A stretch of DNA of 32,010 nt. It comes from Klebsiella phage ST405-OXA48phi1.3. Location of the stretch: sequence record MK416008.1. One strand, written 5' to 3'. The notes beneath the pieces were generated by a model that saw only the letters and a list, made by a program, of their open reading frames with translations, was not told the DNA's origin and ran no database searches. The position numbers were made by a program, and so were the translations under genes. The stretch's first letter is position 1; each line of letters opens with the position of its first letter. This document shows, one piece after another, positions 6,078 through 32,010 of this stretch.

Positions 6078-6114
6078 GCATTACAGGAGCCATTCACCGA
6101 GTGGCTTCGATAAT
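6078..6114. repeat. Copy 1 of a conserved hairpin element: GCATTACAGGAGCCA-N9-TGGCTTCGATAAT.
   Basis: Near-identical flanks and stem to the copy at 6389-6425. It starts 1 nt after a stop codon. No T-run follows. Confidence 0.55.
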
Positions 6115-6141
6115 GCTCCCCACATCGCACAGAGGTAAGAC

Positions 6142-6387
6142 ATGTCAGAGATCACCGCATCCGAGCAAATCCGCCTGGATATCATCAAGAAAGTTAACTA
6201 CGACACCGCAGCGGCCAAGCTGGCCATTGACTGGGTAGGCGACAGCTATCTGAAGTCTGAGCTATTTGCAGACTCTTTCGATCGTGTTTTCACGGAAAGC
6301 GAGATTGTCTCAAAGACCCGAAAGGCGATTCAGGAAGCGACTGAAGCGCTGGCGCTGTTTGATACCGGCGCTGAGCAGGCCAGCTAA
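6142..6387 (+). CDS. Small acidic hypothetical protein (81 aa).
   Basis: GAGGT SD. The second hairpin copy follows it. Confidence 0.5.
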   Translation: MSEITASEQIRLDIIKKVNYDTAAAKLAIDWVGDSYLKSELFADSFDRVFTESEIVSKTRKAIQEATEALALFDTGAEQAS

Positions 6388-6388
6388 G

Positions 6389-6425
6389 GCATTACAGAGC
6401 CACTTCAAGAGGTGGCTCGATAATA
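6389..6425. repeat. Copy 2 of the hairpin element: GCATTACAGAGCCAC-TTCAAGAG-GTGGCTCGATAAT, with a perfect 7-bp stem.
   Basis: Read directly. It lies between convergent gene ends. Confidence 0.55.
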
Positions 6426-6432
6426 ATTAATA

Positions 6433-6996
6433 CTATCGCCAAAATGATAGTAACCACAAAAATAATAAGCCAGATGCAGCGCTAATGCCTATCCAGGCTT
6501 TATCGATAGCCCCAGATTGCCATACCTTTGCCGCAAGCATAAAGAAACTTACAAGGCCCGCCAGCCATTTATATTTAGTAGTAGTTTTAATTAGTTGCTG
6601 GCTTTTTAATGTTAATCCAATGATGCAGGTTTGTAATAATCTTGGTAGTTTTCGATAAAGTCGCCCGAAACGCGTTACGCCATATAACTGCATCCAAGTG
6701 TGATCGCCAAATAACACCACTGGATGGATTTCATCTTTTATTACCTTAAGGGTAATAGCTAGTTCAAGTGATGCCTTAATCCTATATGAGCATGCTTGTA
6801 CGACCTGCTTTTCGAAATGAGTTACAGGATTATCGAGTGGTTCACATCCCATTATTTCAAATTTGTCATTTTCTAACCGGGTAGCATAGTTGAGCTTAGA
6901 CAGCTTTTGTTCTATTGCTATATCAATAAAGCGGTTTATTAGGTAACGCCTTATTTCAATTGTGAAATTTTCCTTCATGGTTCCCAAGGCCTTCAT
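6433..6996 (-). CDS. AT-rich moron: hypothetical protein with an N-terminal soluble domain of about 140 aa and two C-terminal TM helices.
   Basis: 187-aa ORF (possibly starting at Met7, 6978). Markedly lower GC than its flanks. C-terminal segments WLAGLVSFFMLAAKVW and AWIGISAASGLLFLWLLSFW. Opposite strand to the late operon. Confidence 0.55.
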   Translation of the reverse strand: MKALGTMKENFTIEIRRYLINRFIDIAIEQKLSKLNYATRLENDKFEIMGCEPLDNPVTHFEKQVVQACSYRIKASLELAITLKVIKDEIHPVVLFGDHTWMQLYGVTRFGRLYRKLPRLLQTCIIGLTLKSQQLIKTTTKYKWLAGLVSFFMLAAKVWQSGAIDKAWIGISAASGLLFLWLLSFWR

Positions 6997-17743: not shown

Positions 17744-18078
17744 AGGCCCAAAAGTGGCTAAAGGAATTCGCCGGCGAACAGGGTGACAAAGCAAAGTGGC
17801 GTAGGGAGAAGCTAAATCTCCCGCCCATTCCAGAGCCTGAAATCGATGCAGTCACTGGGGAGATCCTCAACGCTTACGCCATGATATCGCGCGGCAGGAA
17901 GTATGCCGGCATGGCCGGAGTGCCGCTCCCTCTATCCCTGAATGATATTGAGCTTTATCTGGCATCGCGCACCATCCTGATTGACCGCACTGAGTTTGAT
18001 GCAACAATACTTGCCCTTGATGATGTCTGGAGGGAAGGGTGGGCAGAGGCGCAGAAGAGGGCTAGTAATAAAAAATGA
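17261..18078 (+). CDS. GT: Tail assembly chaperone GT, produced by a programmed -1 frameshift at 17731-17737 (G frame to about 17737, then the -1 frame from 17737 to the stop at 18078, about 272 aa).
   Basis: The -1 frame is open from the heptamer through the 65-aa ORF-track entry 17881-18078. The frame arithmetic is consistent: start coordinates 17225 ≡ 2 and 17881 ≡ 1 (mod 3). Confidence 0.6.
17731..17737 (+). other. Slippery heptamer A_AAA_AAG for a -1 programmed ribosomal frameshift.
   Basis: G-frame codons gtA AAA AAG cca tag. Identical to the dnaX-type heptamer. Confidence 0.75.
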
Positions 18079-18309
18079 GCCTCGGCATCTTCCAGTGACG
18101 GTAAGTAAACTTCAGCGTTATAAAGTGAAAGATACTAACATGTACTTCCGAGCTACTGACTTCTTCATGGCGTACCACAATGATTATGGCTTCACGTGCG
18201 AAGTTCATTCAGCCGTGACTGCAGCACAATTTGTAGGCAGGTTCAGGTTGACTAATCTGAACCAAAGTACATAGAATTCTAGACCCACGTGATAAAGGCG
18301 AAAGTTGGA

Positions 18310-19092
18310 ATGGCTGCAGGCATACCAAAGGAAAAATCTGTTGAGTACATTGAGATGTTCGCAGAAATGCTCAGCACTGGGGCAACTCTCGACGATATCT
18401 CATATCGTCGATTTCTGCGTGAAATTGAACAGATTACATCTCCTTTTTCTGCAACCGCCTTGGGGTTGTTATATGCAGTCGCAGGCAAATTCGAAAAATC
18501 AAATGCTGCTTTCGAAGAAGCAAGTAAAGAGTACGATGATGTTTCTATACCTTACAATCATTTAGTAACTCTACGCTTAACTTGGCAGGACCACTTACTG
18601 AAAGATAGATCATATGAATATGCGGATCGATATGAGTCAAAAAGACTGACATCTCTCGCGTTTTCTTATGCTTACCGATTCGGAGATCGAGATGGTCTTG
18701 TGCGCTATATGGACCGTCATATCAGGCTGCTATCCAATGAGGAGGGCAGGGAATTGGCTGAAAAACATAAAGAAGAATTGCTTTTAGAGTTAGATGACGC
18801 TTACCGCTCTTCAGGTTGTACGCAACAACAATTTGAAACACTAGCCTTGATTATAGGACGCATAGCAAAAGAATTTAATGCTGAGTTAGGGTTGGTTGAG
18901 GTGAGTAGAAGAGGCAATTCTTGCTATGTTGCCGATATTAAAAACAAAGACCCTAGAACGATTGCAGAAATGAATTATGCTTTGGCAGAAGCTGTTTGTG
19001 ATGAGCCACTGCTTGATGATTGTAACCTTATTGGCCGATTCTCTCCTCAACGAGAGTTACACGTGGGAATGACCTATGTCTATCAACAGTGA
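18310..19092 (+). CDS. Hypothetical all-helical protein (about 260 aa), first gene of an AT-rich two-gene operon.
   Basis: ORF-track entry 18289-19092 (GTG). ATG at 18310. Its 3' end overlaps the next gene by 17 nt. No nucleotidyltransferase GSx motif was found. Confidence 0.5.
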   Translation: MAAGIPKEKSVEYIEMFAEMLSTGATLDDISYRRFLREIEQITSPFSATALGLLYAVAGKFEKSNAAFEEASKEYDDVSIPYNHLVTLRLTWQDHLLKDRSYEYADRYESKRLTSLAFSYAYRFGDRDGLVRYMDRHIRLLSNEEGRELAEKHKEELLLELDDAYRSSGCTQQQFETLALIIGRIAKEFNAELGLVEVSRRGNSCYVADIKNKDPRTIAEMNYALAEAVCDEPLLDDCNLIGRFSPQRELHVGMTYVYQQ

Positions 19093-19471
19093 GGATTTCA
19101 TTAGTTCGGCAAAATTCTGCCTCAGCCATGAAAATGAAGTGGGTTACAGAAGTTGCATATCTCGTGCATACTATGGGATGTTTCATGAGGCTATGGCTTC
19201 TCTCACAAATGTCCCTGCTTTTAGTAGCAATCACCATGGCAATCTCATTGGCTATATGACGAATGCTGCAGAATGCAAATCTGAACCTTATGACAAGCGC
19301 AAGTTGAAGGCTATGGGTTATAGCTTAAAACAAATGCGAGACTCAAGAAATGAAGCGGACTATCACATTACTGAAATCACAATAACTAAGGAAATTGCTG
19401 ATGCCGCGATTTTCTCAGCCGAATTGTTTTTTAGTAAATGGACAGCACTAAAAGAAGTTAAAGCATCATAA
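19076..19471 (+). CDS. HEPN-like domain protein (131 aa), a putative RNase toxin or abortive-infection effector.
   Basis: R91-NEADY-H97 (R-x5-H) in the context LKQMRDSRNEADYH, plus an N-terminal ISRAYYGMFHEAMASL helix. Both are characteristic of HEPN (Rx4-6H). Translationally coupled to the upstream gene. Confidence 0.5.
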   Translation: MSINSEDFISSAKFCLSHENEVGYRSCISRAYYGMFHEAMASLTNVPAFSSNHHGNLIGYMTNAAECKSEPYDKRKLKAMGYSLKQMRDSRNEADYHITEITITKEIADAAIFSAELFFSKWTALKEVKAS

Positions 19472-19489
19472 TTGACGTGACTGCGTTTT

Positions 19490-19515
19490 ACCCGCCCCCG
19501 GCGGGTTTTTGCTTT
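19490..19515. terminator. Terminator shared by convergent genes (ACCCGCC-CCC-GGCGGGT plus T5GCTTTT).
   Basis: Read directly between the 19076-19471 (+) and 19527-19997 (-) genes. Confidence 0.7.
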
Positions 19516-19526
19516 TCTGTTTCTTG

Positions 19527-19997
19527 TCATTTTCCAAATAATACGGACAATCCTGCAGTCGTCGCGGTTTGCACCACTGTTTTAAGAGCCTCAGTTGATA
19601 GTTCGCCGAGTGTGGATTTAGCCTTTTCCTTTTGCTCGTCGTTCATGTTGGACATTGCAATAAGGTCTTCGAGGACTACGATAGCTTCTCGATGGAATTT
19701 GATGGTTTGAACGTTCAATATTGCACTAAGCCCACCATCATCCCGAATAAAGTCAATTCCTTTATTCGTTATTTTAGTGTTACCGAGCATAACAATATAA
19801 GCTCCGGACATGACTTGCTCTAAATGACAGTCTATCAACCCATGGTCACGAAGGTAGATAAGGTTTGCTACTAGGTTATCCTCGCTACCAAATGCTGATT
19901 TATAGTGACCTTCTCGCTCATGGTTAATACCATACGGTGATGTTTCATATAGTTCTTTCAGCAGTTCACGCTGTACATTTCTGTCGAACTTATCCAT
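19527..19997 (-). CDS. Hypothetical protein with a DUF2513-like winged-helix N-terminal region.
   Basis: AAGGAA SD on the minus strand. Pattern NLIYLRDHGLID...ITNKGIDFIRDDGG is reminiscent of DUF2513. AT-rich. Confidence 0.45.
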   Translation of the reverse strand: MDKFDRNVQRELLKELYETSPYGINHEREGHYKSAFGSEDNLVANLIYLRDHGLIDCHLEQVMSGAYIVMLGNTKITNKGIDFIRDDGGLSAILNVQTIKFHREAIVVLEDLIAMSNMNDEQKEKAKSTLGELSTEALKTVVQTATTAGLSVLFGK

Positions 19998-20072
19998 GGT
20001 AATTCCTTTGTTGGGGTTTACTCTCTAAGTTACACTGATACAGACGGGGCGAACATCCTGATAAACGATCAG

Positions 20073-20570
20073 GTGATTTTACCACATACGAGTATCGCTG
20101 TTACTCTGAGTGCAAGTATTCATTATGGAGATATGGATGTGAAGATTATCGGATATATAGCTATCGCAATTGGCATTATCTTCGCTGTGTCAGCCTTGTT
20201 TATGGATGTGACAGTGGTTGCTGGTGATGGCTACAGAGTTAACAACCTTGGTTTAATGTCTTCACGACAAAATTACATGATATTTGGCGGGTTCGTAGCG
20301 ATTGCAGGAATCATCATCGCTTTGGTCGGCGAGACGTTCAAACCATCCGCAAGCTCAGTCAAATGTCCATACTGCGCAGAGTTAATAAGCGCTGAAGCGG
20401 TGAAGTGCAAGCATTGCGGAAGTGACGTTACCCCTTTGAAGACAATAGTTCGCGCTGACGAGACTGAGGCCAGTGATAGGCTGGCTGAAGTCAATGTAAA
20501 ATTGATCGCAGGGATTGTGCTGTCGGTCTTTGCGGCGATTATCGGCGCAATAATTTTTCACCGCCAATGA
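20073..20570 (+). CDS. 3-TM membrane protein with a CPYC...CKHC zinc ribbon between TM2 and TM3.
   Basis: ORF track. The likely start is an internal ATG/GTG about 60-66 nt in, preceded by GGAG. Hydrophobic segments IIGYIAIAIGIIFAVSALFM, MIFGGFVAIAGIIIALVG and LIAGIVLSVFAAIIGAIIF. Confidence 0.5.
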   Translation: MILPHTSIAVTLSASIHYGDMDVKIIGYIAIAIGIIFAVSALFMDVTVVAGDGYRVNNLGLMSSRQNYMIFGGFVAIAGIIIALVGETFKPSASSVKCPYCAELISAEAVKCKHCGSDVTPLKTIVRADETEASDRLAEVNVKLIAGIVLSVFAAIIGAIIFHRQ

Positions 20571-23756: not shown

Positions 23757-23839
23757 GCTAAACTGAATTAGCTGAGACTTGATTAGGTAGGTAAGTCTAA
23801 CAATCTGAGTAGGTGCAAGAAAACACAAGGATCTTATTA

Positions 23840-24175
23840 ATGGAAGCGTTGTTAACATTTACATTTAAAGACTTTATAGCTTTTATGATTCCTCTTTTTA
23901 TTGGCGGACTTATCTTCAATAGGAGACGTAAACGTAAGGAGGTCCGAGTGAAGTTTTCATTTCTTTGGCTTGTTTTGATAGTCGGTGGAATTCTTGAAAT
24001 ATGCGATGATATCTACACAACTTATTCCTATAGGCATAATCATTTATATAATAATGATACGCTTACAACCGTGTTTAACTATGATTTTGCAAAAATTGTT
24101 TTTTGTGGGGTTTTGATCTTTGTTTCTATTGCGCTTCTTCTTCAGGAGTTGCTTTTAAACAAGCAGTCAAATTGA
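23840..24175 (+). CDS. AT-rich moron: 111-aa membrane protein with 3 TM segments and a basic RRRKRK loop.
   Basis: Internal Met of the 120-aa ORF with AAGGAT SD. Very low GC. Own terminator downstream. Confidence 0.5.
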   Translation: MEALLTFTFKDFIAFMIPLFIGGLIFNRRRKRKEVRVKFSFLWLVLIVGGILEICDDIYTTYSYRHNHLYNNDTLTTVFNYDFAKIVFCGVLIFVSIALLLQELLLNKQSN

Positions 24176-24190
24176 CGTATCTTGCCTGTC

Positions 24191-24213
24191 GGCGCATCGC
24201 CATTTTTTATTTT
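24191..24213 (+). terminator. Small terminator (GGCG-CAT-CGCC plus T6AT4).
   Basis: Read directly after the membrane-protein moron. Confidence 0.4.
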
Positions 24214-24233
24214 GACATGGGGCTGTGCCGAAA

Positions 24234-24251
24234 CAATGTAAGCTTACATTG
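24234..24251. promoter_or_regulatory. Perfect 18-bp palindrome CAATGTAAGCTTACATTG, a candidate operator. It lies 17 nt downstream of a perfect TTGACA.
   Basis: Read directly in the AT-rich 315-bp gap upstream of the M-like tail gene. Confidence 0.4.
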
Positions 24252-24489
24252 AAGTCAATAAAATTAATATATTGATAATGCTGTTTTTTTTTATTTCTTT
24301 TAGCTCTTGAGGTGAGTTGGTAAATATATCGCCTTGTGTGTTTTTTTCGATTTAATAAGATTTTTATCTTCGTTAATTTGAACCAAAAAATCAGAGATTT
24401 CTTCGATTCCATCGTGCTTTATTCTGAAATGAATACCCTCCTGAGGTTAATGGTGAAATTTTATTCGAGATACTTTACCGGGAGACTGC

Positions 24490-24963
24490 ATGACTGATAT
24501 CTACTACCCACATGACAGCCTCCCTATGCCATTACAGGAAGGATACGGATTTCAGCCTGTGAGCCCGTTAAAACGAACCCAGTTAACCACCGGTCGCGCG
24601 AGGCAAAGGCGAGCTTTTACGTCCACGCCGACGCAGGCCAGCATCACCTGGTTTATGGAAACCGATGCGCAGGGACTGGCGTTTGAGTCCTGGTTCCGTG
24701 ATGCGTTATCTGACGGGGCTGCATGGTTCATGATGAAACTGCAGACGCCGGCAGGCATTAAGTTTTACAAATGCCGCTTCACAGATATTTATCAGGGACC
24801 GGTGCTGGTGGCCCCGATTTACTGGAAGTACACGGCGACGCTTGAATTATGGGAACGCCCCCTTGCTCCTGCCCCATGGGGTAATTACCCGGAATGGATC
24901 GTCGGCAGCTCACTGCTGGATATTGCGCTGAATAAGGAGTGGCCGAAGCATGACGCAGATTAA
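24490..24963 (+). CDS. Minor tail protein (M-like, position-based).
   Basis: First gene after the tape measure, 157 aa. Overlaps the next gene. Confidence 0.5.
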   Translation: MTDIYYPHDSLPMPLQEGYGFQPVSPLKRTQLTTGRARQRRAFTSTPTQASITWFMETDAQGLAFESWFRDALSDGAAWFMMKLQTPAGIKFYKCRFTDIYQGPVLVAPIYWKYTATLELWERPLAPAPWGNYPEWIVGSSLLDIALNKEWPKHDAD

Positions 24964-25426
24964 ACGCCTCTACGCCAGCTGTGGGCCGGAGGTGATCATT
25001 GAAACGCTGCAGATCACCATTGGTTCTGACGTCCATTATCTTTGCCAGGGTTACGAGAACATCACGGCAACGACGGAGAACAGCGATACCGTAACGTTTA
25101 CCGCCTGCGCAATAGACATTGCGCTGCCGGCGCGCAATGCGGACGGTACGCAAGATTTGAAATTTGCCCTGTGCAATATCGATGGTGTTGTGTCCACGGC
25201 GATCCGCAATGCCCTGGCTAACAGATTGCCTGCATCGCTGACGTACCGGCGTTATATCTCCACGGATTTAGCGGCCCCTGCGGAAGTGCCGTATACGCTG
25301 AAAATCAAGTCGGGCTCCTGGACAGCGACAGAGGTGCAGATCACCGCGGGCTATATGAATGTCCTCGATATGGCCTGGCCGCGTTACCGCTACACGCTCC
25401 CTGTATTCCCCGGACTGCGTTATTAG
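24950..25426 (+). CDS. Minor tail protein (L-like, position-based).
   Basis: 158 aa. Synteny. Confidence 0.5.
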   Translation: MTQIKRLYASCGPEVIIETLQITIGSDVHYLCQGYENITATTENSDTVTFTACAIDIALPARNADGTQDLKFALCNIDGVVSTAIRNALANRLPASLTYRRYISTDLAAPAEVPYTLKIKSGSWTATEVQITAGYMNVLDMAWPRYRYTLPVFPGLRY

Positions 25427-25443
25427 TCTTAACCGGAGGTGGT

Positions 25444-25677
25444 ATGACTGAAGAAAGGATAAAAAGACTTGAATCTGAACTATTACAAGTTCGCTATGAA
25501 ATTGCCGTAATAAAAAAACTACTAATTCCAGATAAAACTCCGGCATGGGCTTTACTTGCGAAAGATATTGCCTATTCTGAGGGGCTAAGACCCTCACCCT
25601 ACGGTGAGGGATACGATATGTGTCGTCTGCTCGAATTACTTTGTAAAATTGGGGTTTTATCGGAGGAGGGTCACTAA
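25444..25677 (+). CDS. Small coiled-coil protein (77 aa) whose 3' end overlaps the 3' end of the TIR gene convergently by 21 nt.
   Basis: Strong GGAGGTGG SD 3 nt upstream of the ATG. AT-rich like the TIR gene. Confidence 0.45.
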   Translation: MTEERIKRLESELLQVRYEIAVIKKLLIPDKTPAWALLAKDIAYSEGLRPSPYGEGYDMCRLLELLCKIGVLSEEGH

Positions 25678-26535
25678 CTGATCCGCTATTTCCTCATATG
25701 TCTGTATTGCGGTATTCATTGCTACCTTATCAGCTAAAGATGGACTAAATTTGATGACTTCTGATTTGGATATTTCGTGCCAGATTGGCAATACCCTTTT
25801 TGTCCCTTCAATTTCAGATGCGATTAATCCGTTTAGTTCATATTCTGTCCATTGTTTTTTAATGAAATTTTTAGATATAACAACTATTCCGAAACGTGAA
25901 TTCGCAAGTCCTTTGTCGATTTTCTTTCTGAGACTGTCGCCCCATGCGAGAGAGAATTCGTCGTACCAGACCTTCACGCCCTGAGATTTCAGGTACTCCG
26001 CAAATGGCCTTACGAACAAGTCTTTATCTTCACTGGCGTGAGAAATAAAAACATCATATTGCGGAGATTCATCTTCATCATTAATGGCATCGTGGATACC
26101 AGTTTTACTGGAGAGCATACGACTATGAAGGGTCCGTATTTGTGAGTCCATTTCTTCTTTAATTTTTTTTTGTAAATCCTGTTGTTCTTTTTCACGTTTT
26201 TTTTGCGCAATTTCCAGCTTTTTGCGCTCGGACTCTTCATCTTTAGTCAATTGTGTCTCATAACGATGAAGTTCAGCAGTTTTATCAGCAATTTTTTTTG
26301 ATAACTCGGCGTTTTTTGCATTGCATTTGGATATGTCGCTTGTATTTCGGGCTATTTGAGACATTTTGGAGGAAACAGTCGATGGGGAAGTTGAACTGGT
26401 GATACTTCTCTGTAACTGGTTAATACTGCTTAGTAGTTGTGCTTCCTTTTTGCTTTCATCCGCTATTTTTTTTCGCAGATCAGCCAGTTCTCTTTGAATC
26501 CTGCTTATCGCTGTCCTGTTTGAGCTGATTGACAT
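25657..26535 (-). CDS. Coiled-coil plus TIR-domain protein (292 aa).
   Basis: C-terminal YDVFISHASEDKDLFVRPFAEYL...SRFGIVVISKNFIKKQWTEYELNGL is a classic bacterial TIR (DVFISH...ED, the IVVxS block, W-x-E-x-EL). The N-terminal ~150 aa are K/E/Q-rich coiled coil. AAAGGAAC SD. AT-rich, on the opposite strand, inside the tail-tip operon. Confidence 0.8.
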   Translation of the reverse strand: MSISSNRTAISRIQRELADLRKKIADESKKEAQLLSSINQLQRSITSSTSPSTVSSKMSQIARNTSDISKCNAKNAELSKKIADKTAELHRYETQLTKDEESERKKLEIAQKKREKEQQDLQKKIKEEMDSQIRTLHSRMLSSKTGIHDAINDEDESPQYDVFISHASEDKDLFVRPFAEYLKSQGVKVWYDEFSLAWGDSLRKKIDKGLANSRFGIVVISKNFIKKQWTEYELNGLIASEIEGTKRVLPIWHEISKSEVIKFSPSLADKVAMNTAIQTYEEIADQLVTLLR

Positions 26536-26649
26536 TTATTGTTCCTTTTAGAGGTATCGCTGTGCTCTGAAAAGAGTACACCAATCAGTAACATCGGAAA
26601 ACCTGGAAGCATCAACAGGGTATTGATTTCGCATCAACGAGGTAATTAC

Positions 26650-27030
26650 ATGTTTCAACCTGAAAAGTACCTTTCGGTCATCTGGCTGAAGGGCGGTCGC
26701 TCTTTTCCAAAACTTGACTGCTTTGGCATTGTGAACGAGATACGCAGCGATTTGGGCTTGCCTCTCTGGCCTGATTTTGCCGGGGTCACGAAAGACGATG
26801 GTGGCCTCGATCGGGAAGCGCGCCGGATGATGCTCACTCTTGAACATTGCGAACCTTGCGAGGGTGCCGGGGTTGCCTGCTATTCCGGGTCAACCGTCAC
26901 ACATGTCGGGATCGTCGTCAACATCGATGGCCTGCTGCATGTGGCGGAATGCAATCCGGGAACGAACGTCACCTTTCTGCCGTTGTCGCGGTTTAAGCGG
27001 CGATTTGTCAAAGTGGAGTTCTGGCAATGA
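26650..27030 (+). CDS. NlpC/P60 (C40 peptidase) tail-tip protein (K-like, with no MPN/JAB domain).
   Basis: Cys/His triad candidates in LDCFGIVNEI / VTHVGIVV / LHVAEC. GAGGT SD. ATGA overlap with the next gene. Confidence 0.65.
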   Translation: MFQPEKYLSVIWLKGGRSFPKLDCFGIVNEIRSDLGLPLWPDFAGVTKDDGGLDREARRMMLTLEHCEPCEGAGVACYSGSTVTHVGIVVNIDGLLHVAECNPGTNVTFLPLSRFKRRFVKVEFWQ

Positions 27031-30000
27031 CCATTCGTTTTTACCCGTCGCGGCTGCCCGGTGAACCACTGGAAACGCATGAAAATGGCGTTACCACCAT
27101 TCGCAGCTGGCTGGTGGCAAATGTTGAAGGCTACGAAGATCGGGATGTTCCACCGTTGACCGTTGAGGTTGAGGGGCTGTCAATTCCGCCTGGCGAATGG
27201 GCTACTTGCGTGATCCATCCTGATAGTGATGTCCGGCTTTATCCGGTGCCTTTCGGGCTTGAGGCTGCTACGATCGCCTGGATAGGCGTCGGTATCTCCG
27301 TTGCCGCTGCAGCCTATTCGCTGTTTATGATGAGCACCATTGATACGGGCGGCTATACCTCATCCACAGGGCGGAGTCTCGACCTGAACCCGGCGCGGGC
27401 CAACACCGCAAAACTCGGTGATGCCATTCGTGAGGTGTTTGGCCGGGTGCGTATCTACCCAGATTATGTGGTGCAGCCGGTTACCCGGTTCGATGCCGCC
27501 GATCCTACGAAAATGCGCGTCCAGATGCTGCTGTGTCTCGGTGTCGGTGATCTGATTTATACCAATGGCGATATCAGGGTTGGCAGTACGCCAGCTTCAA
27601 CGCTGCCGGGTTTCAGCAGCATCCATTACCCGCCAGGAGCGGACGTTTCCGGCGATGAGCGCAGTGAAAACTGGGTCAACAGTACGGAGGTCGGCGGGAC
27701 ATCATCCGGTACCGGACTGGATATGGCCCAGACGTCGCCGGACGCAGACGACATTATCGCAGACAGCATGACCGTCTCCGGATCGAGCGTGACGTTTACC
27801 GGGCTGGATACGGATGATGATGACGATAATGGCGAGAACGATAACGCGCTGCCGCCCAGCTGGGTCGCTGGCGCCGTGGTCGAACTGAAAGCCCCGGCGA
27901 ACTACCAGATCACCACGGCGGCCGGATACAGTGTTATCGCCAGCCCGCTGCTGACGGAGATCGCGCCGGTAGTAGGTATGCCGGTGACGCTGGGGTTTAA
28001 CTCTGTCGATTACGATCTGTTTATCGCGTCATATACCCCCGGTCAGGCTGCAGTGCCCGGCACCGGGGGGAGTGCGGCAAAACTCCAGGCCAGTGCGGCC
28101 CCGACCACCTACGATTTTTCGACCAGCTCCAGCACGTTCACGATCACCTGGCAGGGGGTTACCTATCCGGTGTCGCTGGTGGCTAACTACGTCTCGATGT
28201 CGGGACTGCTGGCGGCAATCACCGAGGGACTCACTGGCTCCGGCCTGATTGCGCAGGACAACGGCGGCACCGTACTGATAACCGAGTCGGCCAGTCCGTT
28301 CACGGGTGGAGCGATCACCTCCTCTTCGCTGCCTGCAGCTGTTTTCGGTGATGCCCCGGTTTACACCTCCGGCACGGCATCAACCGGCGGCAGCCCGGCG
28401 GTAACGGCGAATGTGACGCTTGCCTATAACAGCGCCACGGGAACAGCCTTTTCCGGCATGCCGGAGGGGGTGCAACGGCTTTCACTTGCTCACCGCGGGA
28501 ATGAGTACCGCATTGTCTCGACCGACGGCACAACGGCGACGGTGGCGCGCCTGGTTAATGGTGCAGTTGATGAGTCATGGCCGGGATTCACCGCCCGGAC
28601 GATGATCGATTATGAGGCCACTGGCCTTAACGACACGCTGAGCTGGCTTGGGCCGTTCCTGGTTTGCCCTGAAAATGAGACCGTGGATATGTTCGAGGTG
28701 AATTTCTCTTTCCCGAACGGTATTTGCGGCTTTGACAGTAAGGGCAAAAAACGGATCCGCCACGTTGAGTGGGAGATACAGTATCGCGTCTACGGTTCCG
28801 GATCGGGGTGGGTGAGTCACCAGGGAGAGTACGCGCTTAAAAACATCAACGGGTTAGGTCTCACTGAGCGGATCACCCTCAGCTCTCCGGGACTGGTAGA
28901 GGTTCGCTGCCGTCGGCGCAATGAGCAGGGCTCAAACAACGCCAGGGATTCGATGTACTGGCAGGCACTACGCGGGCGACTGCTGACGCGTCCTTCATCC
29001 TATCCCGGCGTGTCGCTGATGGCGGTGACCGTTGAGACGGGGGGCAAATTGGCGGCTCAGTCGGACCGCCGCGTAAACGTTGTGGCCACGCGGGCCTATG
29101 ACTCAGGAACGGCCAGAACCATTTCTGGGGCGCTGCTGCATGTCGGGAACTCGCTGGGACTGGAGATGGATGTCGACACCATCAACGCGCTGGAGTCTGC
29201 ATACTGGACGCCACGCGGCGAGTATTTCGACTTTGCTACCGGCGACAGTATCTCAGCGCTGGAAATGCTGCAGAAGATAGCCAATGCCGGGAAGTCACGT
29301 TTTCTGCTGAGTGATGGCCTGGCGACGGTCAACCGTGAGGGGATTAAGCCATGGACGGGGATCATTACGCCACATGAGATGGTGGAGGAGCTGCAGAGCG
29401 CTTTTACCGTGCCCTCAGATGATGATTTTGATGGTGTCGACGTGACGTACATCAACGGGACTACCTGGGCAGAGGAGACCGTTAAATGCCGGACGCCGGA
29501 CAATCCCACGCCGGTGAAAATCGAGAACTACAAACTCGATGGGGTACTGAATCAGGATCACGCCTACCAGATCGGCATGCGTCGCCTGATGAAATACCTG
29601 CAGCAGCGGGTGACGTTCCAGACCACTACCGAGCTGGACGCGCTGTGCTACAACCTGGGCGATCGCATTGTGCTCACGGATGATATTCCGGGTAACAACA
29701 CGATTTCCTGTCTGGTGGAGGCGATGACAACGGCTGGTGGCGTGACAACGTTCACCGTTACGGAGCCGCTGGACTGGTCTTTCGAAAATCCCCGAGCGCT
29801 GATCCGCTATCAGGATGGCTCTGCATCCGGGCTGATGGTGGCGAGCAGGGTGGGTGATTTTCAGCTGTCAGTCCCGCACCTGAGCGAGTTTGATGACCCG
29901 ATGAAGGTTGACCTGTCGTCGGCAACCATCGAGCCGATCCGCCTGGTGTTCTGCGGCTCAACGCGCCACGTCTACGACGCCATTGTAGAGGAGATCGCTC

Positions 30001-30095
30001 CGCAGTCAGACGGAACCTGTCAGGTCACCGCTAAAGAATACCTCGAATCATTCTACCAGTACGACGACGCCACATACCCCGGCGACGCTGCTTAA
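27027..30095 (+). CDS. Tail tip / host-specificity protein (J-like, 1022 aa) with a gpI-like N-terminus.
   Basis: The N-terminal ~110 aa ends in the hydrophobic GLEAATIAWIGVGISVAAAAYSLF, resembling lambda gpI. Size and position match the central tail fibre. Confidence 0.7.
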   Translation: MTIRFYPSRLPGEPLETHENGVTTIRSWLVANVEGYEDRDVPPLTVEVEGLSIPPGEWATCVIHPDSDVRLYPVPFGLEAATIAWIGVGISVAAAAYSLFMMSTIDTGGYTSSTGRSLDLNPARANTAKLGDAIREVFGRVRIYPDYVVQPVTRFDAADPTKMRVQMLLCLGVGDLIYTNGDIRVGSTPASTLPGFSSIHYPPGADVSGDERSENWVNSTEVGGTSSGTGLDMAQTSPDADDIIADSMTVSGSSVTFTGLDTDDDDDNGENDNALPPSWVAGAVVELKAPANYQITTAAGYSVIASPLLTEIAPVVGMPVTLGFNSVDYDLFIASYTPGQAAVPGTGGSAAKLQASAAPTTYDFSTSSSTFTITWQGVTYPVSLVANYVSMSGLLAAITEGLTGSGLIAQDNGGTVLITESASPFTGGAITSSSLPAAVFGDAPVYTSGTASTGGSPAVTANVTLAYNSATGTAFSGMPEGVQRLSLAHRGNEYRIVSTDGTTATVARLVNGAVDESWPGFTARTMIDYEATGLNDTLSWLGPFLVCPENETVDMFEVNFSFPNGICGFDSKGKKRIRHVEWEIQYRVYGSGSGWVSHQGEYALKNINGLGLTERITLSSPGLVEVRCRRRNEQGSNNARDSMYWQALRGRLLTRPSSYPGVSLMAVTVETGGKLAAQSDRRVNVVATRAYDSGTARTISGALLHVGNSLGLEMDVDTINALESAYWTPRGEYFDFATGDSISALEMLQKIANAGKSRFLLSDGLATVNREGIKPWTGIITPHEMVEELQSAFTVPSDDDFDGVDVTYINGTTWAEETVKCRTPDNPTPVKIENYKLDGVLNQDHAYQIGMRRLMKYLQQRVTFQTTTELDALCYNLGDRIVLTDDIPGNNTISCLVEAMTTAGGVTTFTVTEPLDWSFENPRALIRYQDGSASGLMVASRVGDFQLSVPHLSEFDDPMKVDLSSATIEPIRLVFCGSTRHVYDAIVEEIAPQSDGTCQVTAKEYLESFYQYDDATYPGDAA

Positions 30096-30171: not shown

Positions 30172-32010
30172 ATGGCCGAACTTAACCCGCCTTTGGGAAC
30201 AACGACGCCTGAAATCTTCCTGGATAACGTCAAGCGCGCTGACGAGCTGGTTAACGGTCCGGCAGGAACGGTTAACGACCGCGGCGGTGAACCGCTCGAT
30301 ACCTGGCGCCAGATGATGGCGAAAAACGATGAGATCAGGCAGAACCTGATCCCGCTTAGTAAACAGTATGCGACGCTGGCTGCGGCACAGGCGGACATTG
30401 CTAATATCCCGGTGGGCTCGACCACGTATTACCGTAGCCCTGATGACAGCGCTCTTGCGGTTGAGGTTATTAACAACGCCGGGACGCTGCAGCCTACCGG
30501 GCGCCAGATGCCATCCATGTTTACCTTCGCAGGTGTCAGGTTTCTCAGAGGATATGGGACTGATGAATTTGTCATTATTGGTACTGATTATCAGGTCCTT
30601 GAATATGGTGCCGACAGTGACAGGCTGCGCGATGCTGGAGCCGATATTAAATACGGTTATGGCTTACCGGGAAAACCACTGGCTGTCATCGGTACAGACG
30701 GCGAGATGACGTCATTTCTCACATCTGATTCTTTACAGGATGCCGGAGTATCAATTCTCAGAGGATACGCCTCGTCACCGTTCGCCGTGCTTGGAGCTGA
30801 CAATCAACTGCTGTTGATGGGTTCTGGTGAGTCGTCAGCTGCGACAGCTTTGCCGGAGACAGGCCTGCTTAATTATCTCATCGCCATGCAGGAACGGGCG
30901 TACACCGGGGGATACCTGGTCATTATGTGCGGGCCGGGTGATTCTCTTACCGCAGGCACTGACGGCCTGAGCGCCATTGACGCTATGTATAGCCTTTTTG
31001 CCGCTAACTTGGGACACGGTGGTATAGGCTACTTCGCCCCATCAAATGACAATACAGCAAGTCGCGACTTGCTGAACATGGAATTGGCTTACACCGGCTG
31101 GGTGGATAACCAGACCTACGGCAAAAAATGTGGCCCGCTAAATTTTGCTCTTGTTCCGTGGTCAGGTCGTACTAATTTGTTTTTCCGGGTAAAAGATGCG
31201 TCCCGCAGCAACCCCATTTACCAGCATGACGTGGTGGAGGTCGGGTTTACCGGGACGGGTGACGTGGGAACCTTCAGCCAGTTCCGGTTCCGTGCAACCG
31301 ACCGGAATGACGATGGGGCCATTGGCCCAGCAGGCTCCGGGGAATGGCAGACGGCTACCATCACAAACCAACCCGAGGGTTCAGAAGAAATCCAGATAGT
31401 GCGTGTTGAGGGGCTAGGACCCGCTTCGGGCCGTTTCTCTCTGGAGATAGAGCCGCCCGCATCAGGTCAGGCCGGGTATCCTGCGATTGTCAGCTTCAAC
31501 TGCATCAACTCTGCTGGCGGCGTTCGCGTTATTCGGTACGCTCGGGGCGGCGCGACTGCGGCATATCACCTGAACCAGACGGCCTCGTACCAGAAATACT
31601 GGATGCAGTATTTTGCTCCTGACCTGGTGTTTATCAATCTCGGCGAGAATGATTATGCACTGACCGATTCGGAATTTATGAGCGGGTACAGCGCCATTGT
31701 TGAGCGGGTACAGGATGCGCTGCCGGGTGTACCTGTTATTCTGGAGCGCTGGTACAGCGACAACCACATTAAGCGTGATGCGGTTTTTGACGTCATTCAG
31801 GCTAAATATGGAATGCTGGGATTTAACGTTCGTGACCTTATCCGCAACTCAAATTTTGCGTTCCAGAACGGCTACGCCTATTCCACCACCAACCCGGCAG
31901 ACCCGCACCCCAACGCACGCGGAGCCAGAATTATTGGCGCGTATCAGGCGAAACGCGCACTCCTGAACTACGCCGTACAATCTCTCAGAAAGGAACAACA
32001 AAATGGCTAA
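30172..32010 (+). CDS. Tail fibre / tailspike with an SGNH (GDSL) esterase domain.
   Basis: SGNH blocks GDSLTAG (block I), GENDY (block III) and DPHPN (Asp-x-x-His catalytic dyad, block V). The N-terminal conserved fibre-attachment region follows the J-like gene. GGAG SD. Confidence 0.7.
   Translation: MAELNPPLGTTTPEIFLDNVKRADELVNGPAGTVNDRGGEPLDTWRQMMAKNDEIRQNLIPLSKQYATLAAAQADIANIPVGSTTYYRSPDDSALAVEVINNAGTLQPTGRQMPSMFTFAGVRFLRGYGTDEFVIIGTDYQVLEYGADSDRLRDAGADIKYGYGLPGKPLAVIGTDGEMTSFLTSDSLQDAGVSILRGYASSPFAVLGADNQLLLMGSGESSAATALPETGLLNYLIAMQERAYTGGYLVIMCGPGDSLTAGTDGLSAIDAMYSLFAANLGHGGIGYFAPSNDNTASRDLLNMELAYTGWVDNQTYGKKCGPLNFALVPWSGRTNLFFRVKDASRSNPIYQHDVVEVGFTGTGDVGTFSQFRFRATDRNDDGAIGPAGSGEWQTATITNQPEGSEEIQIVRVEGLGPASGRFSLEIEPPASGQAGYPAIVSFNCINSAGGVRVIRYARGGATAAYHLNQTASYQKYWMQYFAPDLVFINLGENDYALTDSEFMSGYSAIVERVQDALPGVPVILERWYSDNHIKRDAVFDVIQAKYGMLGFNVRDLIRNSNFAFQNGYAYSTTNPADPHPNARGARIIGAYQAKRALLNYAVQSLRKEQQNG

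Follow-up and report, generated by a model that had tools for sequence, protein, structure and literature searches.

A coiled-coil-TIR gene and a small convergent partner gene inserted into the tail operon of Klebsiella phage ST405-OXA48phi1.3: a candidate prophage defence with a putative late-operon-coupled modulator

Background

The structures and the chemistry of bacterial coiled-coil-TIR proteins such as AbTir, TcpB, TcpC and TlpA are known; their role is disputed between virulence mimicry and immunity. To our knowledge, no trigger or regulator of these proteins is known. Here we describe a member of this family that is encoded, together with a small convergent partner, in a cassette inserted into the tail operon of Klebsiella phage ST405-OXA48phi1.3 (record MK416008.1). 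The analysed stretch of 32,010 nucleotides is referred to as the window, and positions are those of the window. We tentatively interpret the pair as an anti-phage NADase of the lysogen and a modulator that is coupled to the late genes of the prophage.

The closest described proteins are AbTir of Acinetobacter baumannii (7UWG, 7UXU, 8G83) and BtTir, and the Tcp proteins, which comprise TcpB/BtpA of Brucella, PdTIR/PdTLP of Paracoccus, TcpC of uropathogenic Escherichia coli and TlpA/TcpS of Salmonella. The latter share a layout of a coiled-coil or otherwise helical N-terminus followed by a TIR domain, and are described as effectors on animal Toll-like receptor (TLR) signalling whose genes reside in genomic islands. 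In structural terms the AbTir-type TIR domains are nearer to TcpB and PdTIR than to BcThsB (Manik et al., bioRxiv 10.1101/2022.05.07.491051). Mutants of AbTir demonstrate the importance of single residues: E208A abolishes activity, either G174A or S176A removes it completely or almost completely, and W204A cuts the output of 2'cADPR, a cyclic ADP-ribose isomer (bioRxiv 10.1101/2022.05.07.491051).

A defensive role is described for SpbK of the mobile element ICEBs1, a single protein with an N-terminal helical domain (a four-helix bundle of 94 residues), a linker and a TIR NADase domain. The helical domain docks on an oligomeric phage protein, the portal, and the clustering of the TIR domains triggers NAD+ cleavage; the trigger is YonE, a structural protein of the phage (PMC12847820). 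Nip, a protein of the attacking phage with predicted SH3-like and HU-like domains, binds to SpbK's TIR domain and inhibits it (PMC11984713). BstA is an abortive-infection protein of prophages with a cognate self-immunity that spares their own lytic cycle (PMC8585504).

Results

The cassette

Pairwise blastn homology to Klebsiella phage ST846-OXA48phi9.2 (93% identity) stops at position 25423 and starts again at 26650. The edges of the insert are thus located at 25423/25424 and 26649/26650, exactly between a DUF1833 tail gene and the next tail gene. The insert (25424 to 26649, 1226 bp) takes the place of 18 bp in ST846-OXA48phi9.2 and corresponds closely to the span of 25430 to 26650 given in an initial annotation of this DNA, which had been made from the letters of the sequence. 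Its GC content is 0.37-0.41, against about 0.55 for the flanking tail genes. Both flanking tail genes are present (at about 90-93% identity), and the insert is missing, in 16 phage records and in 33 E. coli genomes. Because relatives sharing the flanks do without it, the insert is not a structural component, an alternative that the initial annotation had raised. Judged by its blastn boundaries, its low GC content and its absence from relatives, the cassette is a foreign two-gene moron of a Klebsiella-type prophage, with genes on both strands.

The plus strand of the insert carries a gene for a protein of 77 amino acids (aa; 25444..25677), and the minus strand a gene for the coiled-coil-TIR protein of 292 aa (25657..26535). 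The two genes are convergent and overlap by 21 nt at their 3' ends (25657..25677), which leaves no space for a terminator between them. The remaining spacer of 114 bp (26536..26649) must carry the promoter and the ribosome-binding site of the TIR gene on the minus strand and the ribosome-binding site of the downstream tail gene on the plus strand. The ribosome-binding site of the TIR gene, AAGGA, is located within the spacer 7 nt ahead of the ATG. An alignment of the regions upstream of TIR genes showed the spacer to be conserved in close relatives only. A scan of 25300-26800 yielded two terminator-like sites, which is the level expected by chance, and they were dismissed.

The coiled-coil-TIR protein

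The identification of a canonical TIR domain, for which the initial annotation had named a profile search as the check, is borne out by Pfam. Residues 159-272 match TIR_2 (E=1.3e-21, 77.8 bits at a cut-off of 28) and TIR (6e-13, 49.4 bits at a cut-off of 21.3). The protein is likewise matched from end to end by the PADLOC model PDC-S66 (residues 1-291 to profile positions 1-280 of 282, E=1.5e-115) and by phrog_15646 (residues 1-292 to profile positions 1-293, E=1.3e-136). In comparisons with solved structures, AbTir (chains 7uwg and 8g83, E=3.1e-53) can be aligned to the TIR domain along some 133 residues, and the domain also matches the BtTir-type 7UXR (E=5.2e-53), TcpB/BtpA of Brucella (4LZP, 4LQC and 4C7M, E=4.6e-48 to 1.8e-45) and PdTIR of Paracoccus (3H16, E=2.4e-45). 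The strong match of the TcpB/BtpA chains answers the proposal to compare the domain with Tcp-type TIRs.

The layout of a coiled coil followed by a TIR domain is reproduced by the AlphaFold2 (AF2) model, which consists of helices at residues 3-44 and 51-143 (pLDDT 89-97), a disordered linker at 143-156 and a TIR fold at 160-291. The N-terminal helical region (residues 3-143, 26107..26529, minus strand) is broken into a hairpin at residues 45-50 (STSPST). The TIR (NADase) domain, delimited by residue-level alignment to AbTir and by the beta-alpha fold of the model, spans residues 158-292 (25660..26064, minus strand).

The residues of AbTir whose mutation impairs activity have counterparts in the window protein. 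E208, W204, T205, G174 and S176 of AbTir align to E233, W229, T230, G199 and S201, respectively, and the BB loop G199-D-S-L202 is retained. The cyclisation Trp and the catalytic Glu are encoded within the codons W229-T230-E231-Y232-E233 (25837..25851, minus strand), and the catalytic Glu that had been expected is found in a W-x-x-x-E context. E233, W229 and G199 are invariant in an alignment of 20 full-length sequences (the window protein and 19 homologues), and S201 is present in at least 90% of them. The mean column identity of this alignment is 64%, with conservation extending to the N-terminal helical part. Going by these alignments, the catalytic residues for NAD+ cleavage are intact, and the protein probably converts NAD+ into 2'cADPR and nicotinamide.

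Identity over the full length is 51% to the Acinetobacter orthologue of AbTir, 58% to homologues in Salmonella (cluster P0027) and E. coli, and about 50% to those in Bacillus and Paenibacillus; among the Tcp proteins, the comparison covers TcpB, PdTIR and P0027. By homology, the 292-aa protein is a full-length member of the AbTir/TcpB/PdTIR coiled-coil-TIR family and not a new kind of TIR protein. The family is matched in at least 582 species-representative genomes, and marine, soil, rumen and thermophilic bacteria, one archaeal metagenome-assembled genome, and their phages have full-length orthologues with 40-55% identity.

Similarity to the described defence systems is more restricted. The homology to SpbK is limited to the TIR fold; the PADLOC spbK model reaches E=0.0013, over residues 117-188, which is a coiled-coil stretch. 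Two ThsB1 profiles of Thoeris match the TIR domain only (PDLC00417 at residues 148-288, E=3.1e-42, and a second one at 6.5e-21), whereas PDC-S66 matches far better and over the full length. The predicted cADPR-isomer product would be common to ThsB and the window protein, while the best-matching ThsB models lack an N-terminal coiled coil. Pfam and PADLOC detect no other defence gene among the scanned open reading frames (ORFs) of the window. In particular, no ThsA (SIR2/SLOG, macro or transmembrane) is present, just as first noted, and the neighbours of the TIR gene are tail genes and the gene of the 77-aa protein. The view that the architecture is unusual holds in so far as it is no Thoeris layout, but not in the sense of an orphan, as the protein belongs to the AbTir/TcpB/PdTIR family and is covered by PDC-S66.

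Several homologous loci display mosaicism or mobility in their own right. The TIR gene at locus L016 (156-1034) is a recombinant. Its product agrees with the window protein at 96.6% of residues 1-117, and the remainder and the small partner resemble those of locus L015. At locus L113 (5001-5879) residues 118-292 alone are window-like. These mosaics indicate that recombination shuffles the N-terminal coiled coil against the TIR domain and the partner. TIR homologues of E. coli (L003, L004, L005) adjoin tyrosine integrases in MobQ/TraD mobilisable islands at sites of the tRNA/tmRNA type, and the copy in L005 is cut by an IS3 element. Deposited phages with members of the family are Enterococcus phage EFC-1 (about 37410-38027; H61/H62), in which the TIR match overlaps a feature annotated as endolysin (L-alanyl-D-glutamate peptidase), and Geobacillus/Thermus phage phiOH2 (35456-36295; H59).

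The small partner

The ORF of the 77-aa protein begins 17 nt past the stop codon of the DUF1833 gene, in the direction of the tail operon, and is preceded by the Shine-Dalgarno sequence GGAGGTGG at 25435-25442. This signal, the geometry of both ORFs and the 21-nt overlap are as initially annotated. Pairwise ratios of nonsynonymous to synonymous substitutions (dN/dS) among six loci range from 0.07 to 0.43, with many synonymous changes, and in seven loci whose TIR protein is 69-100% identical to that of the window, the position of the ORF and its 21-nt overlap are unchanged. The ORF is a genuine gene under selection, which finds further support in the 19 convergent loci described below.

In the protein, an N-terminal coiled-coil helix is followed by a globular part of two helices, which bears the motif GLRPSPYGEGYD..RLLELL. 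AF2 predicts helices at residues 3-27, 34-45 and 57-68 with a mean pLDDT of 91.4. It matches phrog_23021 at 5e-40; the label "ATPase" attached to this group is a mislabel, as nothing supports it. The window protein shares the features of the small-partner family (phrog_23021 and relatives), namely a length of 72-86 aa, an LExE..LKYE helix, the motif P.WA...A...G(L/V)..SP.G.S.D.YR...L and a position convergent to a coiled-coil-TIR gene. Neither fold nor sequence searches of the PDB, including one with the family profile, returned a match, and no Pfam, NCBIfam or PADLOC family was hit at E<=0.01. There is likewise no match to Tad1 or Tad2 (DUF2829), where the result for Tad1 amounts to the absence of any match in libraries that probably hold no Tad1 model. 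A resemblance of the globular part to SLH domains was considered, and as the Pfam matches are below threshold (E=0.007 and 0.18) we take it as a hint and make no claim of it.

An exhaustive search with a hidden Markov model (HMM) of 1.84 billion representatives retrieved, besides one endolysin and a false positive, 14 clusters with lengths of 72-83 aa. The false positive, P0124 (979 aa), was dismissed because it is a repeat protein of low complexity. A tblastn search of the deposited phage genomes with the small protein gave no match, and no deposited phage encodes a homologue; a search for loci with the close subset of small proteins returned nothing from the species-representative genomes.

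Pairing and distribution

At 19 loci from Klebsiella to Bacillus both genes are found together, and they are always convergent, with a 3' overlap of 0-30 nt or a gap of 7 nt. Across these loci the identity to the window falls to 31% for the small protein and to 40% for the TIR protein. The association also emerges when the small protein is taken as the starting point. Of five clusters that were found independently of any TIR gene and looked up afterwards, four (P0125, P0127, P0134 and P0138) adjoin one and one (P0130) does not. Each of the four, with identities to the window protein of 37% in P0125 and 33% in P0138, converges on a TIR gene whose product has about 290 aa.

The partner is not evenly distributed. 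It stands beside 17 of about 32 full-length TIR loci in viral contigs of IMG/VR, in roughly nine distinct lineages, and beside 2 of 80 TIR loci in species-representative genomes, which were drawn from the at least 582 matching ones; these are raw counts without phylogenetic correction. Both genomic cases are located within late regions of prophages, one in Sodalis sp. RH21 at the same tail-operon site and one in Bacillus sp. JCM 19034 after the holin and endolysin genes. A relaxed HMM scoring of all small convergent ORFs beside the 80 genomic TIR genes revealed no hidden partners, and the partner is absent from the E. coli TIR copies in integrase/MobQ islands. The AbTir-type loci of Acinetobacter (L036, L038, L040, L042, L068, L100) are chromosomal and have no small convergent partner, in contrast to the window gene with its partner and its antisense position in a prophage tail operon.

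In every locus with a readable context the small gene runs in the direction of the late genes, be it tail or lysis genes, and the TIR gene opposes them. The sites themselves vary. Many loci share the site between the DUF1833 gene and the 126-aa tail gene; others have the pair between the tape measure gene and a 157-aa gene (L115), after holin and endolysin (L101, L123), downstream of the spanin (L112, L138), after the tail fibre (L125), near the tape measure (L126), or at the end of a prophage beside a serine recombinase and an ImmA/repressor pair (L153). Since L115 carries the pair at the second of these sites, the tail module has at least two hotspots for cargo. A small late-gene partner is linked to the TIR gene, and this pairing is restricted to phage late regions. 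The partner is nevertheless accessory and not needed for TIR function, as about half of the phage-borne and almost none of the chromosomal copies have one.

Two phage-borne TIR genes without the partner have other neighbours at the junction. At L124 an endolysin gene is directly convergent with the TIR gene. At L116 an ORF of 97 aa (6110-6403), which has no PHROG or Pfam match and is unrelated to the partner, occupies the same convergent, late-sense position after the tail-fibre gene, and could be a non-homologous analogue of the partner.

Ancestry of the partner

The family of small proteins aligns over its whole length to each of two tandem C-terminal modules of the glucosaminidase endolysin P0132, a metagenomic protein of 345 aa (hhalign probability 98.3%, E=1.4e-14). 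Among viral structures (BFVD), the small protein finds its best fold match in the C-terminal portion of a "PGRP" endolysin, at a probability of 0.97 but with E=0.038. These similarities suggest that the partner module probably derives from lysis genes of Gram-positive phages.

One member of the family has a different neighbourhood. At locus L156 (4001-7515) P0130 ends a Paenibacillus-type lysis cassette (XkdX, XhlA, SLH-endolysin, holin) and faces, in place of a TIR gene, genes for a 190-aa protein with multiple transmembrane segments and a lipase/LCAT-like protein of 865 aa. This locus may represent different cargo at the same kind of junction.

Discussion

The arrangement of the cassette, a TIR gene against the direction of a late operon and a small gene along with it, leads us to propose the following course of events. 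The TIR gene would be transcribed from a promoter of its own in the 114-bp spacer, antisense to the tail operon, and the lysogen would accordingly make its protein. Following the example of SpbK and other single-gene TIR defences, the helical N-terminal domain may keep the protein as an inactive dimer until a product of an invading phage clusters the TIR domains; NAD+ would then be cleaved, probably to 2'cADPR and nicotinamide, and the infection aborted. The 77-aa protein, on the other hand, would be translated only from the late (tail) transcript. During lytic growth of the prophage itself it would most likely turn the TIR protein off, whether through binding to it or through sequestration of its product. 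In addition, the late transcript would cross the entire TIR gene in antisense on its way to the downstream tail genes, by which the TIR mRNA would be silenced too, and the phage would thus be immune to its own weapon. Behind this proposal stands the consideration that a prophage carrying such a TIR protein must survive its own induction, which calls for an off-switch at late times, and partner and antisense transcript could together provide it. The absence of the partner from island and chromosomal copies would likewise be understandable.

In its entirety, that is, an abortive-infection TIR NADase expressed in the lysogen combined with a late-operon-coupled modulator that is most likely an antidote, we hold this reading tentatively and would put it slightly short of an even chance. 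More likely than the full reading is a narrower claim, in which the 292-aa protein would be an active NADase with an anti-phage role. A more far-reaching version would regard the 77-aa protein as the founder of a new family of phage regulators of AbTir/Tcp-type TIR NADases, a late-operon antidote made from an endolysin C-terminal module; this we regard as possible but rather doubtful.

A number of observations weigh against the proposed antidote and defence. We found no phage-defence experiment on the coiled-coil-TIR family in the literature searched, PDC-S66 is no more than a candidate that the papers naming it simply list, and the relatives TcpB, TcpC and TlpA/TcpS are reported as virulence factors. 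A consensus scan of 25300-26800 found no sigma-70 consensus promoter in the 114-bp spacer. Roughly half of the phage-borne coiled-coil-TIR genes lack the partner (e.g., those at L124 and L116), which means that an antidote is not obligatory. Conversely, P0130 at L156 is a family member without a TIR gene, located after a lysis cassette, and the homology to endolysin modules hints at a lysis-related ancestry or role of the partner. Finally, the 77-aa protein has no similarity to Nip or to any anti-Thoeris family listed in Pfam.

The lysis-related traits raise the question of whether the two genes are functionally linked at all. The TIR protein could be a NADase defence of the lysogen while the 77-aa protein is an unlinked late or lysis accessory, a free-standing endolysin C-terminal module that is the last late gene beside a favoured insertion point of morons and was simply carried along. 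The homology to the tandem modules of P0132, the fold match to the "PGRP" endolysin C-terminus, the position directly after holin and endolysin genes in Gram-positive prophages, the TIR-less P0130 and the many coiled-coil-TIR genes without a small gene would all agree with such a passenger. We nevertheless consider it unlikely, because enterobacterial prophages carry both genes as one unit of 1.2 kb at two different tail-operon sites and the TIR-less relatives lack the small gene as well. The tight convergent junction, moreover, has survived deep divergence in both Gram-negative and Gram-positive hosts. Lacking a signal peptide, the Klebsiella 77-aa protein cannot reach the wall to act on it, and wall-binding would make no sense in the Klebsiella cytoplasm. 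If the genes are linked, the sign of the interaction might also be the reverse, with the 77-aa protein as an activator or trigger that turns the TIR protein on during the phage's own lytic cycle and to its benefit, possibly through the shutdown of NAD-dependent functions of the host or of competing elements, through decapping of NAD-RNA, or through 2'cADPR signalling. Late-operon coupling and phage-restricted distribution are equally compatible with an activator. TIR NADases are switched on by clustering on oligomeric partners (PMC12847820), and the N-terminal coiled coil of the small protein could oligomerise; decapping of NAD-RNA by AbTir-type TIRs is also described (PMC10937652). A gene of the lytic programme would, however, be expected in sense orientation, whereas the TIR gene is antisense and collides with late transcription. 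Loss of NAD+ during its own replication normally hurts a phage, and most members of the TIR family work without the small protein, all of which renders an activator distinctly improbable.

Least probable, to a degree that we would call very unlikely, is a role of the TIR protein as a virulence factor in the manner of TcpC, TcpB/BtpA and TlpA/TcpS, i.e., a lysogenic-conversion gene that damps TLR/MyD88 signalling, with the small protein being unrelated or a chaperone. The shared architecture and the strong similarity of the TIR domain to TcpB would fit this role, as would the presence of homologues from Salmonella and E. coli in integrase/MobQ islands such as those that carry Tcp genes, the pathogenic host genus and the existing Tcp literature. 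The orthologues in marine, soil, rumen and thermophilic bacteria, in an archaeal metagenome-assembled genome and in phages, however, have no animal host to act upon. No signal peptide (by eye) or recognisable secretion signal is present, the residues for NAD+ cleavage are strictly conserved, and how Tcp proteins would enter host cells is itself not settled. Members of the family are found well outside pathogens, and the window gene lies within a phage late operon rather than in a genomic island.

The reading as a lysogen defence with a late antidote also differs from the described systems in several respects. PDC-S66 is a single-gene, unvalidated candidate, and the partner family phrog_23021 is outside the PADLOC model. 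Nip is borne by the attacking phage, whereas the putative inhibitor of the window is encoded on the same element as the TIR protein, and its three helices differ from the two predicted domains of Nip. With BstA and its aba element the pair would share the concept of a prophage abortive-infection defence with a built-in sparing of the own lytic cycle (PMC8585504); BstA, however, does not belong to the TIR proteins, and its immunity resides in a DNA element inside the gene, while for the window we propose a separate late-expressed protein, possibly together with antisense transcription. In type II toxin-antitoxin systems the antitoxin shares an operon with the toxin. The genes of the window type are convergent in 19 of 19 loci, and the pair does not show that arrangement.

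The TIR protein as such is already known, since PADLOC and PHROGs include it and proteins of solved structure are homologous to it. For the convergent partner, the late-operon coupling and the phage-restricted distribution we found no description in the libraries and the literature searched. The locus supplies a genomic logic for these enzymes, in the form of a mobile cargo set against the grain of a late operon and a phage-specific partner tied to the lytic programme. The pair renders the function of AbTir/Tcp proteins, and the tolerance of a phage towards such an enzyme, directly testable. If the partner family does consist of antidotes, the "bacterial Tcp virulence factors" would primarily be anti-phage enzymes, and if the partner is an inhibitor, it would be a ready natural one and a candidate tool against TIR NADases.

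Other features of the window

The gene upstream of the cassette (24950..25426, plus strand) encodes a minor tail protein of the DUF1833 type (Pfam DUF1833 1.2e-38; phrog_396 "minor tail protein"). The gene downstream (26650..27030, plus strand) encodes a minor tail protein of 126 aa (phrog_329, 1.9e-13), and its start codon matches annotated homologues in L001 and L002. It is followed by a TipJ-like gene (27027-30095). The placement of the TIR gene between an L-like and a K-like tail gene is thus right with regard to tail genes, but the supposedly L-like one is the DUF1833 minor tail protein. An NlpC/P60 nature of the 126-aa product, as initially proposed, is supported neither by Pfam nor by a PDB sequence search; PHROG 329 "minor tail protein" is its sole match.

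A second island of low GC content (0.32-0.35) is located at 23757-24489, between the tape-measure gene and the 157-aa tail gene, at the site that carries the pair in L115, and is shared with ST846-OXA48phi9.2. It holds an ORF for a hydrophobic protein of 120 aa (23813-24175, plus strand), for which the match to Acyl_transf_3 is sub-threshold only. More patches of low GC content (0.39-0.42) occur in the structural region at 6433-6996 (minus strand) and 18000-20570. Their ORFs encode proteins of 187 aa (6433-6996, minus strand) and 156 aa (19527-19997, minus strand) and a zinc-ribbon protein (20073-20570). The two on the minus strand have no match in Pfam or PADLOC and may be further cargo genes.

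At the end of the window, the ORF after the TipJ-like gene (30172-32010) extends past the window end and encodes a C-terminal GDSL/SGNH esterase domain (Pfam 4.6e-09). Its predicted product is consistent with a tail fibre or spike that deacetylates surface polysaccharide.

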